From Heterodontus francisci (lineage: Eukaryota): a DNA stretch of 64,000 bases. A program made the translations under genes and the position numbers. Location: contig NC_090373.1 in the NCBI RefSeq assembly GCF_036365525.1, positions 97,683,461 through 97,747,460 on the forward strand, written 5' to 3'. The notes under the pieces are model-generated. The model did no database searches, had not been told where the DNA came from, and was given only the letters and a program-made list of their open reading frames with translations. Shown here in pieces: positions 7,008 through 53,312 of the stretch; the first letter of the stretch is position 1, and every line of letters starts with the position of its first letter.

Positions 7008-8048
7008 ATGACAAATTCAACATCTGGTGCGATTGTGGAAAACCTGCAATACTGCTTTGAATTTGTCAATGAATCTTGCCCCAAAACTGTTAGGTCAACA
7101 GCTATCCAAACAACACTGTACATTTTTATGATAACATCAATTCTGATCACAGTGTTTGGAAACTTAATGGTGATCATTTCAATCTCACACTTCAGGCAGC
7201 TCCAGAAGCCGACTAACTGCCTTGTACTTTCCTTGGCTGTTGCAGATTTTCTTGTGGGTTTCTTGGTCATGCCGTGTAGCATGGTGAGATCCATTGAAAC
7301 ATGTTGGTATTTTGGGAGTACATTTTGTAAAATTCACTCAAGCTTAGATATGATGATGAGTACATCATCTATTTTTCATTTGTGTTTTATTGCAATTGAC
7401 CGCTATTGTGCTGTGTGTGACCCTTTACTCTACTTGACAAAAATCACTCCTCTTGTAATTGCCATTTTTGTCACAGTTAGTTGAATGATTCCTGCACTAT
7501 TTGCATTTGGTGTAGTCTTCTCTGAGATTAATCTCATGGGCATTGAGGATATAATTGCTTCCAGTTCTTGTGTAGGTAGTTGTGTTCTTCTGTTCAATGA
7601 ACTGTGGGGAGTATTGGCTCCAACAATTACATTTTTCATTCCGGGTACCGTAATGCTGAGTATTTATATCAAAATATTTTTTGTGGCAAGAAAGCATGCC
7701 AGAGCAATTGAGAATACAAACAAGGAAACTAATTTTGCAGAAGAAAATAAAAACAGTATCTCAAGAAGTAAAGAGAGCAAGGCTGCAAAAACACTAGGGA
7801 TAGTGATGGGTATCTTTTTGACTTGCTGGATTCCTTTCTTTATAACCACTGTTATCAATCCAATTATACATTTTTCCACATTGCCAATTATATTTGATAC
7901 ATTTGTATGGTTTGGCTATTTTAATTCTGCTTTCAATCCAATGCTTTATGCTTTCTTTTACCCCTGGTTTCGTAAATCATTAAAACTTATCCTGACCAGA
8001 AAGATATTCGACTCCGATTCTTCAACAATTAATTTATTCACAGAATAG
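7008..8048 (+). pseudogene. TAAR: TAAR-family GPCR, 346-codon frame with one in-frame stop (TGA at 7482-7484, replacing W4.50)
   Basis: ORFs 7008-7484 and 7485-8048 are contiguous and in one frame. Motifs: [24 protein letters not shown]3.32 (D114), DRY, KAAKTLG, CWIP and the TAAR fingerprint NSAFNPMLYAFFYPWFRK. Paralogues have Trp at the stop position. Confidence 0.9.
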
Positions 8049-18078: not shown

Positions 18079-18768
18079 TCTCTTCTCTCTTTGGCCTCGT
18101 CTCGAGAGACAATGGGTAAGTGCCTAGAGGTGGTCAGTGGTTTGTGGAGCAGCGCCTGGAGTGGCTATAAAGGTCAATTCTAGAGAGACAGACTCTTCCA
18201 CAGGTGCTGCAGATAAAATTGGTTGTTGGGGCTGTTACACAGTTGGCTCTTTCCTTGCACTTCTGTCTTTTTTCCTGTCAACTGCTAAGTCTGTGACTCG
18301 CCACTCTTTAGCCCTGCCTTTATGGCTGTCCACCAGCTCTGGCGATCACCAACAACTGACTTCCATGTCCTGTGGTCAATGTCACAAAACTTCATGTCGC
18401 GTTTGCAGACGTTTTTAAAGCGGAGGTCTGGATGGCCAGTGGGTCTGATACCAGTGACGAGCTCGCTGTACAATGCGTCCTTGGGGATCCTGCCATCTTC
18501 CATGCGGCTCACATGGCTAAGACATCTCAAGCGCCGCTGGCTCAGTCAAGTGCACATGCTGGGGATGTCGGCCACCTCGAGGACTTCTGTGTTGGAGATA
18601 CGGTCCTGCCACCTGATGCCAAGGATTCTCCGGAGGCAGCGAAGGTGGAATGAATTGAAATGTTGCTCTTGGCTGACGTACATTGTCCAGGCCTCACTGC
18701 CATAGAGCAAGGTACTGAGGACACAGGCTTGAAACACTCGGACTTTTGTGTTCCGTGTCAGTGCGCCA
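18079..18768 (-). mobile_element. RTE-clade LINE 3' fragment
   Basis: ACVLSTLLYGSEAW...CLRRILGIRWQDRISNTEVL and HVSRMEDGRIPKDALYSEL. Homologous to 40563-41214. Confidence 0.9.
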
Positions 18769-19678
18769 TTTTAATATTAATTACAATTTTGGGAAATTTG
18801 GTGATAGTGATTTCAATTTCACATTTCAGACAACTTCAGACACCAACCAAATGATCTTGTTCTTTCCTTAGTTACTGCTGATTTTGTGCTGGGATTCATT
18901 ATACTACCTTAAAGCATGATCAAATTTTTTGAAACCTGTTCGAATTTTGGAGATACAGTTTGCAAACTCCACTCGAGTTCAGATTTAACACTGACCACAG
19001 CACAAGTTTTAGTTTATACTTTATTGCCATAACTGTTACTATGCTGTGTGTGTGATCCTTTACTCTACCAAAATCACTCTGCCTGTAATTGGTATGTTTT
19101 TTACATTTACTTGGGTGTTTTCCATATTTTTTGGGTTTAGTCTTGTTTATTCAGATCACACTATAGCTGGAATGGAGAATTACATAGCTGGTACTTGATG
19201 TCAAGGCAGCAGCGTGCTCATATTTAATAAGCTGTGGGGGCATCTGGATACAGTGATTGCATTTTTAATTCCTAGTTTTATCATTGTAGGTGCATATCTC
19301 AAGATATTTTTCATAGCAAGAGAACATTCCAAAGTAATTGGAAAGAAGATAAACAAGATTCACTCCACAGAAGAAACCAATACCACAATCTCATATAATA
19401 AAGAACACAGGGCAGCTAAAAAATTAGGTACAATAATAGTTGTCTTCATAATCTTCTGGATTCCATTTTATGTAAACAGTGTTCTTGACGCATACATTAA
19501 TTTCACTTCCCCAGCAGTTTTATACGATTTTTTTGGGTGATTTGGTTATTTGAATTCCACATTTAACCCAATGTTTTATAGTTTCTTTCACCCTTGGTTT
19601 CAGAAAGCACTAAAATATATCCTGTCTTTTAAAATATTTCAGCCTGAGTCTTGCATGATTCATTTGTTCCTGAAATAA
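18769..19678 (+). pseudogene. TAAR: TAAR pseudogene, N-terminus lost at the RTE junction, multiple stops and frameshifts
   Basis: [25 protein letters not shown], stop/frameshift at ~18852, TAA at ~18910, damaged DRY, NKLWGHLDTVIAFLIP, HRAAKKLG, FWIPFY, TGA at W7.40 (19538-19540), [21 protein letters not shown]. Confidence 0.9.
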
Positions 19679-41970: not shown

Positions 41971-43008
41971 ATGAATTTAACACATCTTGAGAAGTTAGAA
42001 GATGTGCAATACTGTTTTGAATTTGTCAATACCTCCTGTCCCAGAGTCACCAGGCCAACAGCAATCAATGCAGCACTGTACATTTTTATCACCATTTCAA
42101 TACTAATTACTATATTTGGAAATCTGGTGGTGATCATTTCTGTTTTACACTTCAAGCAACTACAGACACCCACCAACTGTCTTATCTTATCTTTAGCTGT
42201 TGTGGATTTTCTGGTGGGCTTTATTGTGTTGCCTTATAGTATGGTTAGGTCTGTAGAAACGTGCTGGTATTTTGGAGAAGTATTTTGTAAAATTCACTCA
42301 ATTATAGATATTGTATTGACCATAGTTTCGATTTATACTTTATGTTTTATTGCCATTGATCGTTACTATGCTATGTGTGACCCTTTGCTCCACTCTATAA
42401 AGATCACTCTGCCTATAATAATTGTGACTATGATATTAATCTGGTTGTTTGCTCTCTTTTATGGACTTAGTGTGTTTTTATTAGATTTCAGTAAAAAGTC
42501 AGTAGATGATTATATGGCTACTAGGTCTTGTGATGGCAGTTGTATTGCATATGATAAGTTTGAGGGGCACGTGGATGCACTGATTGTATTTTTTATTCCC
42601 ATTTTTATCATTTTAGGTGTATATGTCAAGATATTTTTTGTGATGAGGTGCAAACATGGTGGAAGAATTGGAAACATGTCACATAATAGCCACTGTACAG
42701 AAGAAAACAATATTAAAATCTTGCATAAAAAAGAGCAAATAGTTGTTAAAAACCAAGACATATTAATAGGAATTTTTACACTCTCCTGGCTGCCTTTCTA
42801 TGTAAATAGCATTCTGAACCCATATTTTAATTTTTTAATTCCACCAGCTATAGACAGTGTATTTGCGTGGTTTGGATTCTTTAATTCTACTTTAAACCCA
42901 TTGCTTTATGCTTTCTTGTATCCGTGGTTTCGCAAAACACTAAAACTTATACTTTCTGGTCAGATATTTAATTCAGATTCTTCTACAATTAATTTTCTTT
43001 CAGAGTAA
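41971..43008 (+). CDS. TAAR: Trace amine-associated receptor, 345 aa, single-exon CDS, divergent TM6
   Basis: [24 protein letters not shown]3.32 (D113), DRY, D5.42 (D202), SWLP and the fingerprint NSTLNPLLYAFLYPWFRK. AATAAA at 43039-43044. Confidence 0.93.
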   Translation: MNLTHLEKLEDVQYCFEFVNTSCPRVTRPTAINAALYIFITISILITIFGNLVVIISVLHFKQLQTPTNCLILSLAVVDFLVGFIVLPYSMVRSVETCWYFGEVFCKIHSIIDIVLTIVSIYTLCFIAIDRYYAMCDPLLHSIKITLPIIIVTMILIWLFALFYGLSVFLLDFSKKSVDDYMATRSCDGSCIAYDKFEGHVDALIVFFIPIFIILGVYVKIFFVMRCKHGGRIGNMSHNSHCTEENNIKILHKKEQIVVKNQDILIGIFTLSWLPFYVNSILNPYFNFLIPPAIDSVFAWFGFFNSTLNPLLYAFLYPWFRKTLKLILSGQIFNSDSSTINFLSE

Positions 43009-43545: not shown

Positions 43546-44340
43546 GTGAATAGTTAAGATAAACCACACAGACATATAGTCATGGAAATGTTTGAAACAG
43601 ATTACTGTGAGAGAACACAGTTTATGACAAGATTGGAGTGCAGAAGAGAACAGTCAAAAACTATCTTGCTAATTAAATATACTAAAAAAGCTACTGATGT
43701 GGGAAAGCGTTGACCATTCTTTACTTTGTATCACTACACAAAAGTAAGTTGTGCTGCTTGAATTAAAATTAGTCTTATCATAACTGTTATTTTGCATTTT
43801 CTGCTTACTACGAAATGGAATAGCTTATAGATTCATATCAAACCTCACCTCACCATTGTTATGATCCCATTAGGGACTGTTAATTTTTAAAAAGAGGAAA
43901 TACAATTCCCAGTTATTACTGAAAAAATTATGCCGCAACAATTCATGTTTTAAAATAAAAACTTTGCTGTACAAGAGTTAAAGCAAAACACTACTAACTT
44001 AAGATTACAATTTGGAAACACTTATATTTAACCTTAAAATCTTAAACAAAACATGAATACGCATACTTCAAACTCTAAATCTCAACTGAACACTCATATT
44101 TGATTGTTATTTCCACCCTAAGGATTTCCCTATATGTTACAGGATCTTGGCAGTTTGTTCACTTCTCCTGGGACCAACCCAAAGGGTACCACAGCTCTTA
44201 GGAATTCACTTCAATTTCCATTGTTTCTTCGCTGTCTTCTGACATATGAGATCACCTCCTGAATCTGGACTTCCCAGCTTGAAGATGGACCTGCATCAAA
44301 ACAGAAACATCCCTGGTTCCCGATGGCCTCTTTGCTTCTA

Positions 44341-44628
44341 CATTGCTTTATGCTTTCTTGTATCTGTGGTTTCGCAAAAAACTAAAACTTATACTTTCTG
44401 GTCAGATATTTAACTCAGATTCTTCTACGATGAATTTTTTTCAGAGTAAACACAGATATCATGGAGCTATACGAAATGAAATAAATAAAATTTATATATT
44501 CCTCACATTCATTGTGTTGGAAAGTATTTTTCAACCAACCCCTTTCAACCAGCCATGGTTCATTGGTTGCACTTTTGCCTCTGAGTCAAAAACTTGTGGG
44601 CCCCACTCCAGTCAGAACACAAGGTCTA
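44341..44628 (+). pseudogene. Duplicated 3' end of the TAAR at 41971 (helix 8, C-tail, polyA signal and DeuSINE head)
   Basis: Aligns to 42900-43173 (cattgctttatgctttcttgtatc.gtggtttcgcaaaa...cagagtaaacacagatatcatg...ccagtcagaacacaa) with scattered substitutions and indels. Confidence 0.9.
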
Positions 44629-44699: not shown

Positions 44700-46805
44700 A
44701 AAAAACCAACAGGCTCTCCTGCATCATCTGTCTCCATAGCAAGTGGTACATGTGGGATGTCCCAGATAACATGAAGGGGAAAGGTAGGGCAAATAAATCC
44801 AGAGCTCCAGAGACAGACATTAAGATGAAGAAACAAAAATGTGCTTATGACAGATGTCAGGTGGATAATGCATCTGAGATCCAGGCTGAATATAGAAGGT
44901 TCAGAAGGGAAGTGAAAAGCAAATAAGAGAAGCAAAGAGAGAGTATGAAAAGAGACAGACAGCTAACATCAAAGGGAATCCAGAAGTCTTCTACAGGTAT
45001 ATTCAATGTAAAAGCATAGTAAAAGGAGGAGTGGGGCTTTGGTATTAAATTAATACTTTGCATCTATCTTTGCCAAGGAAGATGCTGTGCAGATCATGGT
45101 GAAAAAGGAGATTATTCAGACACTTTAAAATTGATATGGAGGAATCATTGGATAGGCTAGCTGTACTTAAAGTTGATAAGGCACCAGGACTGGATGAGAC
45201 GCATCCAATAATGCTGAGGGAAGTGAGAATGGACATTTTTTTTTATTCGTTCATGGGATGTGGGTGTCACTGGCTCAGCCAGCATTTATTGCCCATCCCT
45301 AATTGCCCACTGAAGGCATTTCAGAGTCAAGCAAATTGCAGATGCACTGACCATAATTTTCCAGTCTTCTTTAGATTCACGGGTCATGCCAGAGGTCTGG
45401 AGAATTTCAAATGTTACACCCTTGTTCAAAAAAGGGTGTAAAGATAAGCCCAGCAACTACAGGCCAGTCAGTTTAACTTCAGTGGAAGCTTCTAGAAAAG
45501 ATAATTCAGGACAAAATTAATAGTCACTTGGGCACTTGCGAGTTAATTAGAGAAAGCCAGCACGGAGCTGTGAAGGGCAAATCATGTTTAACTAACTTGT
45601 TGGGATTTTTTTGAAGAGGTAACAGAATGGGTTGATTAGGGTAATGCTGTTGATGTGGTATACAACTTCCAAAAAGCATTTCATAAAGTGCCAAACAACA
45701 GACTTGTGAGCAAAGTTATAGCTCATGGAATAAAAGGAGTAGTAGAAACAGGGATACGAAATTAGCTGAGTGACAGGAAACAGAAAGTAGTGCTAAATGG
45801 ATGTTTTTCAGACTGGAGGAATGTTTGTAATGGAGTTCCCCAAGGGTCGGTGTAGGACCTTTGCTGTTCCTGATTTATATTAATGACATCGACCTTGGTG
45901 TACAGGGCATGATATGAAACTTGGAAACATTGTGAACTGTGAGGAGCACAGCGTAGAACATCAAATCACATAGTTGGTAGAATGGGCAGACAAGTGGCAG
46001 GTGAAATGTATTGCAGAGAAGTGTGAAGTGATACATTTTTGTAGGAATAGTGCAAAGAGACAATATAAAATAAAAGATACAATTCTAAAAGGGGTGCAGG
46101 AGCAGAGGGACATGGGTGAATATGTACATAAGTCATTGAAGGTGGCAGGACAGGTTGAGAGAGCAGTTATAAGAACATACAGCATCCTAGGCATCACTAA
46201 TAGAGGCATAGAGTACAAAAGCAAGGAAGTTATATTAAACTTGTATAGGATACTGGTTTGGCGTCAACTGGACAATTGTGTCCAGTTCTGGGTGCCTCAC
46301 TTTAGGAAAGACATCAAGGCATTGGAAAGAGTGCAGAAAAGATTCATGAGAATGGTTCCAGGGAAGAAAAACTTCTGTTAGATAGATTGGAGAAGTTGGG
46401 GGACTGTTCTCCTTGGAGAAGAGGAGGTTGAGAGGAGATTTGATAAAGGTATTCAAAATCATCAAAATTATGAGGGTCTGGACAGAGTAGATAGGGAAAA
46501 ACTGTTCCCACTGGTGGAAGGATCGAGAAGAAGAGGGCACAGACATAAGGTCATTGGCAAAAGAAGCAATAGCGACATAAGGAAAAACTTTTTCACGCAG
46601 CGAATGGTTGGGATCTGGAATACACTGCCAGAGAGTGTGGTGGAGGCAGGTTCCATCGAGGCATTCAAGATGGAATTGAATTGTTATCTGAAAATGAGGA
46701 ATATTCTGGGCTATAAGGAGAAGACGGGGGAGTGGCACTAGGTAAATTGCTCTTTCAGAGAGCCAGTGCAGACATGATGGGCTGTAACAATTCTGTGATT
46801 CTGTG
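44700..46805 (+). mobile_element. Decayed CR1 LINE ORF2 and 3' end
   Basis: LKVDKAPGLDETHP, NYRPVSL, WADKWQVK, VQFWVPHFRKDI, FFTQRMVGIWN, and a (ttctgtga)n tail at ~46791-46806. Confidence 0.85.
45236..45330 (-). mobile_element. Short tail fragment of the SINE/LINE family at 8979 and 46831
   Basis: poly-T followed by attcgttcatgggatgtgggtgtcactggctcagccagcatttattgcccatccctaattgccc. Confidence 0.8.
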
Positions 46806-46840
46806 AAAGGGTGTAAGCAATGCTTTTCAAGGGTAGGCAG

Positions 46841-46923
46841 TGGCGTAGTGGTATTATCACTGGACTAGTAACCCAGAGACCCAGGGTATTTCTCTGGGGA
46901 CATGGGTTCATGGGTTTGAATCC
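46841..46923 (+). promoter_or_regulatory. tRNA-type internal Pol III promoter (A and B boxes)
   Basis: A box TGGCGTAGTGG at 46841-46851. B box GGTTTGAATCC at 46913-46923 (one change from GGTTCGAATCC), preceded by a small catgggtt duplication. Confidence 0.75.
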
Positions 46924-47135
46924 CACCACAGCAGAAGGTGGAATTTGAATGAATGAATAAATCTGGAATTAAAAGCTAGTCTAGTGATGGCCATGAAACC
47001 ATTGTCGATTGTTGTAAAAACCTATCTGGTTCACTAATGTCCTTTAGGGAAGGAAATCTGCTGTCCTTACCTGGTCTGGCCTACATGTGACTCCAGACCC
47101 ACAGAAATGTGCTTAACTCTTACATGCCCTCTGAA

Positions 47136-50033
47136 ATGGCCTTGCAAGCCACTCAGTTGTACCTAACCGCTACAAAGTCAATAAAAAGGAATGAAACCGG
47201 ACGGACCACCCAGCATCAACCTAGGCACCGGAAACGACAACGGCAAACCCAGCCCTGTCGACCCTGCAAAGTCCTCCTTACTAACATCTGGGGGCTGGTG
47301 CCAAAGTTGGGAGAGCTGTCCCACAGACTAGTCAAGCAAAAGCCTGACATAGTTATACTAACGGAATCATACCTTCCAGACAATGTCCCAGACACTGCCA
47401 TCACCATCCCCGGGTATGTCCTGTCTCACCGGCAGGATAGACCCACCAGAGGTGGTGGCACAGTGGTATACAGTAGGGAGGGAGTTGCCCTGGGAGTCCT
47501 CAACATCGACTCCGGACCCCATGAAGTCTCATGGCATCAGGTCAAACATGGGCAAGGTAACCTCCTGCTGATTACCACCTACCGCCCTCCCTCAGCTGAT
47601 GACTCAGTACTCCTCCATGTTGAACACCACTTCGAGGAAGTACTGAGGGTGGCAAGGGCACAAAATGTACTCTGGGTGGGGGACTTCAATGTCCATCACC
47701 AAGAGTGGCTCGGTAGCACCACTACTGACTGAGCTGGCCGAGTCCTAAAGGACATAACTACTAGACTGGGTCTGCGGCAGGTGGTGGGGGAACCAACACG
47801 AGGGAAAAACATACTTGACCTCGTCCTCACCAATCTGCCTGCCGCAGATACTTCAGTCCATGACAGTATTGGTAGGAGTGACCACCGCACAGTCCTTGTG
47901 GAGACGAAGTCCCGCCTTCACATTGAAGATACCGTCCATCGTGTTGTGTGGCACGATCACCGTGCTAAATGGGATAGATTTCGAACAGATCTAGCAATGC
48001 AAAACTGGGCATCCATGAGGCGCTGTGGACCATCAGCAGCAGCAGAATTGTACTCAACCACAATCTGTAACCTCATGGCCCGGCATATCCCCCACTCTAC
48101 CATTACCGTCAAGCCAGGAGACCAACCCTGGTTCAATGAAGAGTGCAGGAGGGCATGCCAGGAGCAGCACAGGCATACCTCAAAATGAGTTGTCAACCTG
48201 GTGAAGCTACAACCCAAGACTACTTGCATGCCAAACTGCGTAAGCAGCATGCGATAGACAGAGATAAGCGATCCCATAACCAACGGATCAGATCTAAGCT
48301 CTGCAGTCCTGCCACATCCAGCCGTGAATGGTGGTGGACAATTAAACAAGTAACTGGAGGAGGTGGCTCCACAAATATCCCCATCCTCAATGATGGGGAG
48401 CCCAGAACATCATTGCGAAAGATAAGGCTGAAGCATTTGCAACAATCTTCAGCCAGAAGTCCCCAGCATCACAGATACCAGACTTCAGCCAATTCGATTC
48501 ACTCCGCATGATATCAAGAAACGACTGAAGGCACTGGATACTGCAAAGGCTATGGGCCCTGACAATATTCCGGCAATAGTACTGAAGACCTGTGCTCCAG
48601 AACTTGCCTCGCCCCAAGCCAAGCTGTTCCAGTACAGCTACAACACTGACATCTACCCTGCAATGTGGAAAATTGTCCAGGTATGTCCTGTACACAAAAA
48701 GCAGGACAAGTCCAACCCGGCCAATTACTGCCCCATCAGCCGACTCTCAATCATCAGTAAAGTGATGGAAGGTGTCATCAACAGTGCCATCAAGCGGCAC
48801 TTGCTTAGCAATAACCTGCTCAGTGACGCTCAGTTTGGGTTCCGCCAGGGCCACTCAGCTCCTGACCTCATTACAGCCTTGGTTCAAACATGGACAAAAG
48901 AGCTGAACTCAAGAGGTGAGGTGAGAGTGACTACCCTTGACATCAAGGCAACATTTGACTGAGTATGGCATCAAGGAGCCCTAGCAAAACTGAAGTCAAT
49001 GGGAATCAGGGGGAAAACCCTCCGCTGGTTGGAGTCATACCTAGTGCAAAGGAAGATGGTTGTGGTTGTTGGAGGTCAATCATCTGAGCTCCAGGACATC
49101 ACTGCAGGAGTTCCTCAAGGTAGTGTCCTAGGCCCAACCATCTTCAGCTTCCTCATCAATGACCTTCCTTCAATCATAAGGTCAGAAGTGGGGATGTGCG
49201 CTGATGATTGCACAATGATCAGTACCATTCATGACTGCTCAGATACTGAAGAAGTCCGTGTAGAAATGCAGCAAGACCTGGACAACATCCAGGCTTGGAC
49301 TGATAAGTGGCAAGTAACATTCGCGCCACACAAGTGCCAGGCAATGACCATCTCCAACAAGGGAGAATCTAACCATCTCCCCTTGACATTCAACGGCATT
49401 ACCATCGCTGAATCCCCCACTATCAACATCCTAGGGGCTACCATTGACCAGAAACTGAACTGGAGTAGCCATATAAATACCATGGCTACAAGAGCAGGTC
49501 AGAGGCTGGGAATCCTGAGGCGAGTAACTCACCTCCTGACTCCCCAAAGCCTGTCCACCATCTAAAAGGCACAAGTCAGGAGTGTGATGGAATACTCTCG
49601 ACTTGCCTGGATGGGTGCAGCTCCAACAACACTCAAGAAGCTCAACACCATCCAGGACAAAGCAGCCCACATGATTGGCACCCCATCTATAAACATTCAC
49701 TCCCTTCATCACCGACGCACAGTGGCAGCAGTGTGTCCCATCTACAGGATGCACTGCAGCAATGCACCAAGGATCCTTCAACAGCTCCTTCCAAACCCAC
49801 GACCTCTACCAACTAGAAGGACAAGGGCAGCAAATACATGGGAACGCCACCACCTGCATGTTCCCCTCCAAGTCACACACCATCCTGACTTGGAACTATA
49901 TCGCCGTTCCTTCACTGTCACTGGGTCAAAATCCTGGAACTCCCTTGCTAACAGCAATGTGGGTGTACCTACCCCAAATGGACTGCAGCGGTTCAAGAAG
50001 ACAGCTCACCACCACCTTCTCAAGGGCAATTAG
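47136..50033 (+). pseudogene. Single APE-RT ORF of the SINE-headed LINE, broken by stops and frameshifts
   Basis: ATG in gaaATGg context inside the SINE-shared body, in frame with RHRKRQRQ and the APE domain. Stops at 47730, 48960 and 49563. Frameshifts or deletion at ~48170, ~48400-48460 and ~49845. Confidence 0.8.
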
Positions 50034-52274
50034 GGATGGGCAATAAATGCTGGCCTGGCCAGCGATGCCCACATCCCATGAATGAATTTTAAAAATGTTT
50101 ATGCCATTTCTCCAAGGATTCAGCTGATCTTCTGCTGAAGTTACTCCATAATATCAGGACAGCCAGCCAAACATCACCTTCACCACCCGATGAGATTCTA
50201 TTTTAAGGAGAATCAAATGGTACATTTCTGACTGGTTCTATTCCCATATTGATAATTAACACATTGATTTGGGGAAAATAACAGTTGGAAAATACAACCT
50301 TAAGATACTTCCACTACCTCCCTAAAAGTAATCATACTATACTACAATCAGCTACTCAGCTCAGCTAGAACTTTTGACCACCAGACCACTGGAGTCTGCA
50401 TCTCTCGAATGTTGCCATTCGTATGGTAAAGGTTTGAGAAACCCCAAATAAAGAGCGTAAATAGCCATTTCAGCCACTTATCACAGTTTTCCACCAATCT
50501 TCAGCAAAACGTACAAAGGAGAATCTGGAAAACCACTATGAAAAGTCGTGGTCAGTAACTTCAGATGAGGGAATAAAGTAGGAGAGGGAAAAGTTAACTC
50601 AAATGTGTGAGGTATGACACAATAGGTAGACATAATGAAGCACAAACAAGATTTAAATAATTGATAGATTGGCAAAATATAATGTAGCTTTCATAATTAA
50701 GTTTTAACAGGAGATATCAAAGTGAATCATCCATATTCATTTGAAATAATTGGATTGAGTCATTGTTAAATTGCAGTAAATCTAGGTTCAATAGAATGTT
50801 TAAAACAAGGAGTAACAGTAATTATGCAACATACCACTATCAGCAGTAAATATTAACAAACATTGTTAACCCAAGGATATTATAGGGTTTGAACTCCTTC
50901 ATCTTTTCTTTGTTCAGTATTTCTTTGTTTGCCTACCAGGACAATACATGTTATGTGTTATTTAAATGAACCAATAAACACTTGACAAAGGATTAACAAG
51001 ATTGGTTGCAACTCTGATGCAAACCAGAAATCCTAATTGGCCGCACTATTCTACGTCAATTAGGCTGGATTCAAAACCAATACTTTATGCCTTTCATGTT
51101 AGAGTATGTCCCTGTAATTCAGTACGTGCACTGGATCTAAGATATTTCAAGAGAAGTCACAAAGAGGGATCCATGAAAACGAAGACCTGAGTTGGAGCAA
51201 CACTTATCAGATTTCACCATCAAGAGCCTAGAAAAATTCTTCAAGCACAAACGCATTCTCTGGTTAAGGTATTCATTTGGCTGCGGTGAGATTTTGTGGA
51301 AATCTGTGAGATGTGATTTGATCAGCAGTAACAGTGCTCCCACAGCCTGTATCATTGTCACTCCAGTTAACTTGAGATGAATATTGAATGATTGATATTA
51401 TGCTATAAACTTAGTTAAAGTTAAAAGAAGTCACTGCTGCAGTCATTATAAAAGTGGTAATATTTGTTAAATGCTCTTACAAAGTTTGCAAATTTTGTTT
51501 CATCTTGACTTGTGAAGAAACAAATAGGTCAGAGCCATTCCAAGGATCTTTTCTGTTGTGACCAGCATTGCGACAGAGTGACAGTGGAACTCAGGAGTCA
51601 GGTCCAGTGTCTTTATAATTTAAATATAGTGTTCAGCTGGGTTTAAAATGTGATCTTTGGACATCCATTGCATTCCCTGAGATTACCCAGAGCTTAATTA
51701 AAAGTATTGAGAGTGTAGGTGCTTAGATGAATGCTTTCAATGCATTTAAAATTTAATAGCTTGGAACAGAGCTTTGTGTATGTGTATAATTACATGGGTA
51801 TAAACAAGGTACTGCTTGGGTGGAACCGTTACTATATTGACCAGTTTCAAGCCAGTAGCTACAGCATAAATACATCATCATGTTAATAAAATGTTTAAAT
51901 CAATCCAGTACAGAAATGAAATCTGTGAGCTCCCTTGATGACTCTCTTTCTGGAGTTTACACAGTATAAGATGGATCGCACAGACCAGCAGCTTCCAAAT
52001 ATGAACGCTGAATAAATTTCTCTCAGCTATGGCCCTATCATCTGAACTGGGTTTTATAAATATCTATAATAAGCCATTGAACTTTATCCACTGCATGAGT
52101 GAATACAGGATTCATAGGAACTGATAAATAATCATATTAAATTGTACCAAATGTGCTTTTCCACAGGAATTAACTTCAAATACAAAAGGATTCAACACTA
52201 GATCGAGATTACCACAAACTCCTATTTTCTGAATTGTCTCATTTCTATCTCAAGGTTTTACTGAAAGAAGAAAA

Positions 52275-53312
52275 ATGAATTCAACACAACTTCAGGATAT
52301 GGGGGACACACAATTCTGCTTTGAATTTGTCAATATTTCCTGCCCCAAAACCAACAGGTCGACAGCAGTCCATGTAGCATTATACATCCTCTTTGTAGTT
52401 ATCATAATAATTACAATTTTAGGCAACTCGCTGGTGATGCTTTCAATTTTGCATTTTCGGAAACTACAGACACCCACCAATTATCTTGTACTTTCACTCG
52501 CTGTAACTGATTTTCTAGTGGGGCTCATTGTTTTGCCTTATAGTATGATTAGGTCTGTTGACACATGTTGGTACTTTGGAGATATATTTTGTAAAATCCA
52601 TTCCGGTTTGGACATGGTCCTGACAATAACATCTATTTATCACCTGTGTTTTATTGCCATTGACCGCTACTATGCTGTGTGTGAACCTTTGCTCTACACT
52701 ACAAAAATTACTCTGCCTGTAATTGGTATATTTATTACATTTAGTTGGGTATTTTCTATAGTTTATGGATTTGCTTTAATTTACTCAGACGCTAATGTGT
52801 ATGGAATAGAGGATTATATCAGTGCCATTTCTTGCTATGGTAGCTGTGTACTCATATTTAATAAATTATGGGGCCATCTGGATCCACTGATAGCATTTTT
52901 TGTTCCTGTTTTGGTTATTGTCTATATATACCTCAAGATATTTTTTGTGGCAAGACAGCATGCTCGAGCAATTGGAAACGTAATGCACAGAAAGAACGTG
53001 AAACAGGAAAACAATATCGGAGGTTCCCACAAAAAAGAATTCAAGGCTGCAGTAAAACTGGGGGTTGTAATAGGTGTCTTCATTATCTGCTGGTTGCCAT
53101 TTTTCATAATTACTATTGTTGATCCTTACATTGATTTCTCAACACCACCAGCAGTATTTGAAATGTTTGTATGGCTTGGTTATTTTAATTCTACTTGCAA
53201 TCCAATGCTTTATGCCTTTTTTTACCCCTGGTTTCGCAAAGCACTAAAAATGATTATTTCTTGTAAGATATTTGAAGACGACTCTACAATGCTGAATATG
53301 TACCCAGAATAA
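52275..53312 (+). CDS. TAAR: Trace amine-associated receptor, 345 aa, TAAR13-like diamine-binding residues
   Basis: QFCFEFVNISC, GNSLV, LAVTDF, D3.32 (D113), DRY, W4.50, D5.42 (D203), KAAVKLG, CWLP, D6.58 (D283), W7.40/Y7.43 and NSTCNPMLYAFFYPWFRKALK. Acceptor at 52165-52166, AATAAA at 53563-53568. Confidence 0.96.
   Translation: MNSTQLQDMGDTQFCFEFVNISCPKTNRSTAVHVALYILFVVIIIITILGNSLVMLSILHFRKLQTPTNYLVLSLAVTDFLVGLIVLPYSMIRSVDTCWYFGDIFCKIHSGLDMVLTITSIYHLCFIAIDRYYAVCEPLLYTTKITLPVIGIFITFSWVFSIVYGFALIYSDANVYGIEDYISAISCYGSCVLIFNKLWGHLDPLIAFFVPVLVIVYIYLKIFFVARQHARAIGNVMHRKNVKQENNIGGSHKKEFKAAVKLGVVIGVFIICWLPFFIITIVDPYIDFSTPPAVFEMFVWLGYFNSTCNPMLYAFFYPWFRKALKMIISCKIFEDDSTMLNMYPE

Follow-up and report, generated by a model that had tools for sequence, protein, structure and literature searches.

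The window analysed here, 64,000 nucleotides of contig NC_090373.1 from Heterodontus francisci, carries a class II TAAR gene on the forward strand at 52275-53312, with 345 codons and a TAA stop in one uninterrupted frame. It belongs to a cluster of seven TAAR genes and pseudogenes in about 200 kb, in the order TAARS1b, TAARS1a, Ala5.42 class II gene, decayed D5.42 pseudogene, TAARS2, 52275-53312 TAAR and inverted Asn5.42 paralogue. Features are given below in window positions unless the contig is named.

contig 97640139-97641137, forward strand: TAARS1a-type gene (L004), with a stop that removes about the last ten codons and so trims the C-tail
7008..8048, forward strand: class II TAAR with Ala5.42, TAAR4/12-like, its frame interrupted by a single early TGA in TM4
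18765..19669, forward strand: decayed pseudogene of the shark D5.42 clade, with frameshifts and stops, in which D5.42 and D6.58 can still be recognised
41971..43008, forward strand: intact paralogue of the TAARS2 / catshark taar2 type, with D3.32 and D5.42, but E5.38, N6.58, F7.43 and an altered TM6
44325-44441, forward strand: isolated TAAR TM7/C-terminus fragment just 3' of TAARS2, the remnant of a further duplicate
52156..52166, forward strand: splice-acceptor-like pyrimidine tract and CAG, about 110 bases 5' of the ATG
52275..53312, forward strand: class II TAAR (345 aa, P0001), single exon, open frame
52611..52613, forward strand: D113, Asp3.32, the canonical amine anchor, placed by counting and by the TAAR13 register
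52881..52883, forward strand: D203, Asp5.42, the second amine anchor and the sole discriminating residue among those listed by an earlier reading of this DNA
53121..53123, forward strand: D283, Asp6.58, not diagnostic, as it is found in 252 of 281 TAAR matches
53172..53183, forward strand: W300 (7.40) to Y303 (7.43), by residue counting
53187..53234, forward strand: the TAAR fingerprint NSxxNPxxYxxxYxWF of TM7/helix 8, complete in the sequence (N305-F320; motif from PMC8890504)
contig 97757588-97758608, reverse strand: inverted, frameshifted Asn5.42 paralogue (L021), about 10 kb beyond the window

Within this cluster, TAARS1b is intact and three class II paralogues are broken. The four best matches of one paralogue in the cluster, at 88-91% identity, come from three sharks and one sawfish, upholding the label "shark" that the earlier sequence-only reading had given. 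The closest relative of the 52275-53312 TAAR is the inverted Asn5.42 paralogue L021, at 64%; the bamboo-shark orthologue of L021 (P0014) is annotated as full length and lacks D3.32 and the DRY Asp. The tract at 52156..52166 could mark a putative non-coding first exon upstream of the 52275-53312 TAAR. In the Ala5.42 gene at 7008-8048, the TGA (7482-7484) replaces a conserved TM4 Trp; the gene is 87% identical to an intact Mustelus protein and departs at only 4 of 84 constrained columns, so the loss may be very recent, the TGA may be polymorphic, or the assembly may be in error here. Its presence shows that sharks carry an apparent TAAR4/12-like class II type alongside the D5.42 type.

Counting residues of the 52275-53312 TAAR from the anchors R131 (3.50), P211 (5.50), P275 (6.50) and P310 (7.50) gives C106 as 3.25, D113 as 3.32, D203 as 5.42, D283 as 6.58, W300 as 7.40 and Y303 as 7.43, in agreement with the three aspartates, W7.40 and Y7.43 that the sequence-only reading had called. 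The best PDB sequence matches, found with HMMER, are zebrafish TAAR13e, d, c and a (E 1e-119 to 7e-116), and because the alignments to these four chains are gap-free from residue 7 through TM5, D113 and D203 fall on D112 and D202 of TAAR13c; D283 aligns to the TM6 Asp of TAAR13c. D203 thus appears to sit in the pocket, and not outside it, the outcome that had been named as a refutation; this placement rests on alignment register and not on model side-chain geometry. An AlphaFold model built from a 103-row alignment (mean pLDDT 87) has as its first six structure matches zTAAR13 with cadaverine, putrescine, agmatine and histamine, at TM-scores (by target) of 0.96-0.97 and rmsd of 1.4-1.5 Å; our literature search found no publication for these 2026 zTAAR13 cryo-EM entries. 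Contigs from sequencing runs that are possibly the source of this DNA cover the whole open reading frame with 0 differences, and are therefore not independent support; two raw-read DNA runs from other samples gave almost no coverage of it.

In TAAR13c, D112 and D202 are both required, D5.42 substitutions abolish activation and D279 acts as an outer gate (PMC4914996), as the sequence-only reading had stated for D3.32, D5.42 and D6.58. To judge which of these residues are informative, we counted them in 281 TAAR matches of 300-370 aa from three homologue searches, a sample that excludes the neighbour P0027, is rich in TAAR1, TAAR4 and TAAR13 and is without class III. D5.42 occurs in 84 of the 281, D3.32 in 270, D6.58 in 252, W7.40 in all 281 and Y7.43 in 271. 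Among the residues previously listed, only D5.42 is informative. We dropped D6.58, W7.40 and Y7.43 as diamine markers; they had been offered as supporting features and, being near-universal in this sample, add nothing. Two further residues track D5.42: T3.36 is found in 12/12 shark-clade rows and 12/13 TAAR13 rows, and Y4.56 in 10/12 shark-clade, 13/13 TAAR13 and 16/17 TAAR5-9-like rows, both being absent or rare in the Ala5.42 and TAAR1 groups. Their co-occurrence with D5.42 fits a single origin, and could also reflect pocket-wide convergence.

The sequence-only reading had proposed that dual-aspartate recognition exists in a cartilaginous fish, either as an ancestral or as a convergent trait. 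Both aspartates are confirmed here; the idea itself is not new, as Guo et al. 2022 printed Asp3.32 together with Asp5.42 in cartilaginous-fish TAARS2, laid out the convergent and ancestral scenarios, and left undecided whether jawed vertebrates inherited diamine recognition by two aspartates from their ancestor (PMC8890504). What had been overlooked is that 52275-53312 is a paralogue distinct from the TAARS2 of that publication, and that the other sharks traced have dead copies of it. The three TAARS2 sequences of Guo et al. match the neighbour at 41971-43008, not 52275-53312, and the cluster of P0013 includes XP_007897494.1, the chimaera TAARS2 of that study. In our trees, 41971-43008 falls inside the strict TAARS2 group (100/100) and 52275-53312 outside it, ruling out the identification of 52275-53312 as the published TAARS2.

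Shark TAARS2 (equivalent to catshark taar2 and to Cm-taarIIc / Rt-taarIId) and the 52275-53312 TAAR are members of the same shark-only clade, are tandem neighbours, and share Asp5.42, T3.36 and Y4.56. They are nonetheless separate paralogues, 52-56% identical: TAARS2 lacks W5.38, Y7.43 (Phe in 7/7 aligned TAARS2 rows, kept in 52275-53312) and usually D6.58, and its TM6 is rewritten. TAARS2 is also widely intact, whereas the 52275-53312 type was found intact only in this genome. The 41971-43008 orthogroup is intact in 7/7 aligned rows despite its rewritten TM6 (no KAAKTL), F7.43, E5.38 and short ECL2, and TAARS2 is by these features a conserved yet deviant predicted receptor.

The whale-shark gene Rt-taarIIa, given as frameshifted in the supplement of Dieris et al. 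2021 (PMC8032801), is by eye a direct orthologue of the 52275-53312 TAAR, about four-fifths identical and with the same three aspartates. The data that accompany Syed et al. 2023 (PMC10116579) contain further broken orthologues, recognised by eye, from the white, zebra and epaulette sharks and from two bamboo sharks, so that the orthologue is broken in 6/6 other sharks traced. By eye, these copies share with 52275-53312 the same TM3, TM5 and TM6 motifs, the unusual VK at 6.35-6.36 and the three aspartates. They differ in carrying frameshifts, stops or insertions, whereas 52275-53312 is open and keeps the constrained residues. Six DNA motifs had no match in the Syed et al. supplement and later motifs matched only its pseudogene block; four diagnostic motifs first appear after its full-length TAAR block (PMC10116579). 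From these positions, there is apparently no intact copy in the 11 genomes covered there, though line breaks or substitutions in the supplement could hide one. Database searches agree with this picture: no annotated relative above 58% identity was present among the best 120 of 907 protein matches, where an orthologue should rank first, and nothing closer at full length was present among the 150 matches listed by a 50%-cluster search. Of the nine named or identified matches in that search, the chimaera fragment P0318 is the only member of the lineage, besides a truncated sawfish model of TAARS2 type. In the literature searched, which left most subscription journals outside its scope, neither an intact copy of the 52275-53312 TAAR nor a diamine receptor from any shark was found to be reported. 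Docking has been applied to shark receptors with a single TAAR modelled for each species, and the text available names only TAAR1a (PMC11917480). The remaining novelty is thus an intact TAAR13-like survivor of a lineage otherwise known as pseudogenes only.

This pattern of loss raises the question of whether the gene is alive. It could be a relic, open but unexpressed or free of selection and heading for loss as in white, whale, zebra, epaulette and the two bamboo sharks, in the company of the three broken class II paralogues of its own cluster. A search of sequencing runs listed no RNA run that contains the gene, and three possible RNA runs gave no alignment to it, which counts neither for nor against expression. 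A frameshift may also be present in a close relative: run X5, 99% alike, yielded one 247-base contig at depth 2.2 with L81P, G83W and a 4-base deletion, changes that may represent read error or gene loss in that relative. The constrained positions argue against such decay. At 85 columns conserved in at least 90% of 52 bony TAARs, the 52275-53312 TAAR shows 7 departures, against a bony median of 2 (range 0-9) and 13-21 in the TAARS2 rows. By eye, 6 of the 7 are common to the whale-shark pseudogene, which adds five more (G50, P67, G102, W158, F208) and a frameshift; the constrained sites have therefore been kept in the 52275-53312 TAAR since that split, with no new departure except at position 338, which differs in both. 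The frame is, moreover, complete at about one-fifth protein divergence (by eye) from the whale-shark orthologue. Values of dN/dS against four paralogues, 0.24-0.37, reflect deep time only. We consider the relic explanation unlikely; the sole intact copy found of its lineage suggests a putative function under purifying selection here that was lost in other sharks.

In a 76-row tree, the 52275-53312 TAAR lies in an 11-row shark-only clade with TAARS2 (100/99), and a broad-sense shark TAARS2 clade holds it at 100/99 and 99/97. With two TARL-type genes from this genome as the root, and without HTR4, it groups with TAARs apart from TARLs, and is placed outside the TAAR1/TAARS1 group, as class II (96/96, 96/95, 100/100). 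The chimaera fragment P0318 (D5.42, D6.58), which by eye corresponds to the published pseudogene Cm-taarIIb, attaches at the base of the shark clade (99/97), and the shark D5.42 clade therefore predates the chimaera-shark split. The phylogeny that the sequence-only reading had proposed as a check thus bears out a class II TAAR outside TAAR1, but not a TAAR13 orthologue: that topology is rejected (AU p=0.006, log-likelihood 56.8 lower). A grouping of the shark D5.42 clade with TAAR13 and the TAAR5-9-like receptors is not rejected in a 48-row set (AU p=0.518, log-likelihood 0.23 higher), nor is it after removal of the three Asp columns and of 10 rows that were long or decayed (AU p=0.205, log-likelihood 7.2 lower); the rival arrangement, monophyly of all shark class II genes, received 58/89 and 90/96 in the same two sets. 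A count of columns gave 10 sites for a single D5.42 origin, D203 itself among them, versus 6 for shark monophyly, at thresholds that we set after seeing the data. No named TAAR2/3/12, class III or HTR4 sequence is in these trees, mammalian TAAR5-9 are sparsely represented, and the labels are names assigned automatically by the databases.

In the published view there was one ancestral class II gene, duplicated only in bony fish. We offer tentatively, and with considerable doubt, a different account, in which Asp5.42, Thr3.36 and Tyr4.56 arose once, before the split of sharks and bony fish, and class II was already represented in the ancestor by two receptors, one for monoamines with Ala5.42 (7008-8048, TAAR4/12) and one for diamines with Asp5.42 (the present clade, TAAR13, TAAR5-9). 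On this account, the 52275-53312 gene would be the one functional descendant still known in sharks of the first diamine receptor of jawed vertebrates, and diamine sensing in cartilaginous fish could for the first time be tested directly by expressing its protein. Asp5.42 can also appear separately, as is evident from lamprey TARLL2a / TAAR346a, which has D3.32 and D5.42 and detects cadaverine and spermine (PMC8890504). This lamprey receptor has a similar two-Asp polyamine pocket but belongs to a TAAR-like family without the TAAR fingerprint, and is not in the trees here. Among early bony-fish TAAR5-9-like receptors (P0052, P0122-P0132, from coelacanth, paddlefish, bowfin, gar and bichir), the TM5 Asp is followed by a one-residue deletion, the same state described for mammalian TAAR6/8 by Guo et al. 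(PMC8890504); the deletion thus predates the ray-fin/lobe-fin split.

As to ligands, the zebrafish two-Asp TAARs offer the best guide: 5/7 have been deorphaned and 5/5 of these detect dications, with preferences for cadaverine (13c), putrescine (13d), histamine (13a) and agmatine (13e and 14d) (PMC4695389). The 52275-53312 TAAR carries the residues that mark this class at the sequence level, Asp3.32 and an Asp at the true 5.42 with no TM5 deletion. We compared it with known receptors at 29 pocket positions, chosen by us from the general pattern of aminergic pockets and from PMC4914996. Identical positions number 25 for TAAR13e, 24 for seven basal TAAR13s, 22 for 13d, 19 for the 13c type and 14-17 for TAARS2; the measure is a blunt one, since a coelacanth TAAR4-like protein with Ala5.42 likewise reaches 24/29. 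Zebrafish TAAR13a/c/d/e (PDB 9m3s, 9m2s, 9m0z, 9m40) resemble the shark protein in having D3.32, D5.42 and D6.58 in register, in 49-50% identity and in a pocket nearest 13e, and differ in not being orthologous and in lacking its I3.37, P5.43, T6.55 and TM6 VK. I118 (3.37) is bulkier than the TAAR13 Ser, T280 (6.55) and P204 (5.43) differ from zebrafish TAAR13, and TM6 reads V260-K261 where the family reads K-T, a change that may alter G-protein coupling.

Established for 52275-53312 are the open reading frame, the residues with their TAAR13 register, the shark-only clade with TAARS2 and the kept constrained positions. Beyond this, we rate as an even prospect, judging from the sequence, that the gene encodes a dication receptor, with agmatine or putrescine likelier than cadaverine. 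The candidate cadaverine/putrescine receptor of the sequence-only reading is accordingly retained in part: sequence and fold give good support to a dication-type pocket, but the label is too narrow for a pocket nearest 13e and furthest from the 13c type. In its strongest version that label would make the protein the shark counterpart of zebrafish TAAR13c, an olfactory receptor tuned narrowly to the "death odour" cadaverine. D3.32, D5.42 and D6.58 are indeed as in TAAR13c, and sparse taar2-positive cells in juvenile catshark olfactory epithelium indicate that an olfactory role is open to shark class II TAARs (PMC11979771). With TAAR13 orthology rejected, a 13c-type match at 19 of 29 positions, the 13c residues G7.39, L3.33, S5.39 and T5.46 missing, and ligand tuning in the zebrafish TAAR13s being, according to published work, a late expansion (PMC8032801), we regard an equivalent of TAAR13c as very unlikely.

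A better contender, though still a doubtful one, is a working receptor for monoamines or another ligand, in which Asp5.42 is incidental or used differently, as seems so for TAARS2 and mammalian TAAR6/8. Bamboo-shark TAARS2 is in the cloned table of Guo et al. and, after a 97-amine screen, missing from the deorphaned table, and mammalian TAAR6/8 with the nearby Asp5.43 detect monoamines only (PMC8890504); position 5.42 drifts to Asn or Glu in 3/12 shark-clade rows, and I3.37 would narrow the space beside D5.42. Set against this, the Asp of 52275-53312 is at the true 5.42 without a deletion at 5.44, and T3.36 and Y4.56 accompany it as in TAAR13. The TAARS2 that failed the screen, the only shark two-acid receptor cloned by Guo et al., has a degenerate pocket with Glu3.32 and F7.43, unlike 52275-53312, which as an intact, constrained receptor with a TAAR13-like pocket is a much better reagent.

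For the dication receptor that we favor, one amino or guanidino group of the ligand would salt-bridge D113, braced by Y303, and the second cationic group would salt-bridge D203, with M114, T117, W273 and F276 predicted to line the ligand chain. D283 may serve as an outer gate, as in TAAR13c, and the ligand-bound receptor would signal through a Gs/Golf-type G protein. The main uncertainties in this scheme would be I3.37 for the size of the pocket and V260-K261 for coupling. The family, the motif and the question were already known, so what is added is a specimen that can be tested and no new mechanism. If the receptor does respond to diamines, diamine sensing would be extended to cartilaginous fish, with a molecular handle on the detection of decay odour by sharks, and the losses in white, whale, zebra, bamboo and epaulette sharks would amount to a lost sensory channel.

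In adult catshark, only taar1a has been observed in olfactory neurons. Catshark taar2 is found mainly in eye (retina) and brain, besides the sparse cells in juvenile olfactory epithelium (PMC11979771). The 52275-53312 TAAR may have a putative role in smell or in an internal tissue. Finally, the interval at 46800-50100, between TAARS2 and the 52275-53312 TAAR, is occupied by a very high-copy LINE-type element, as seen from extreme contig depth.
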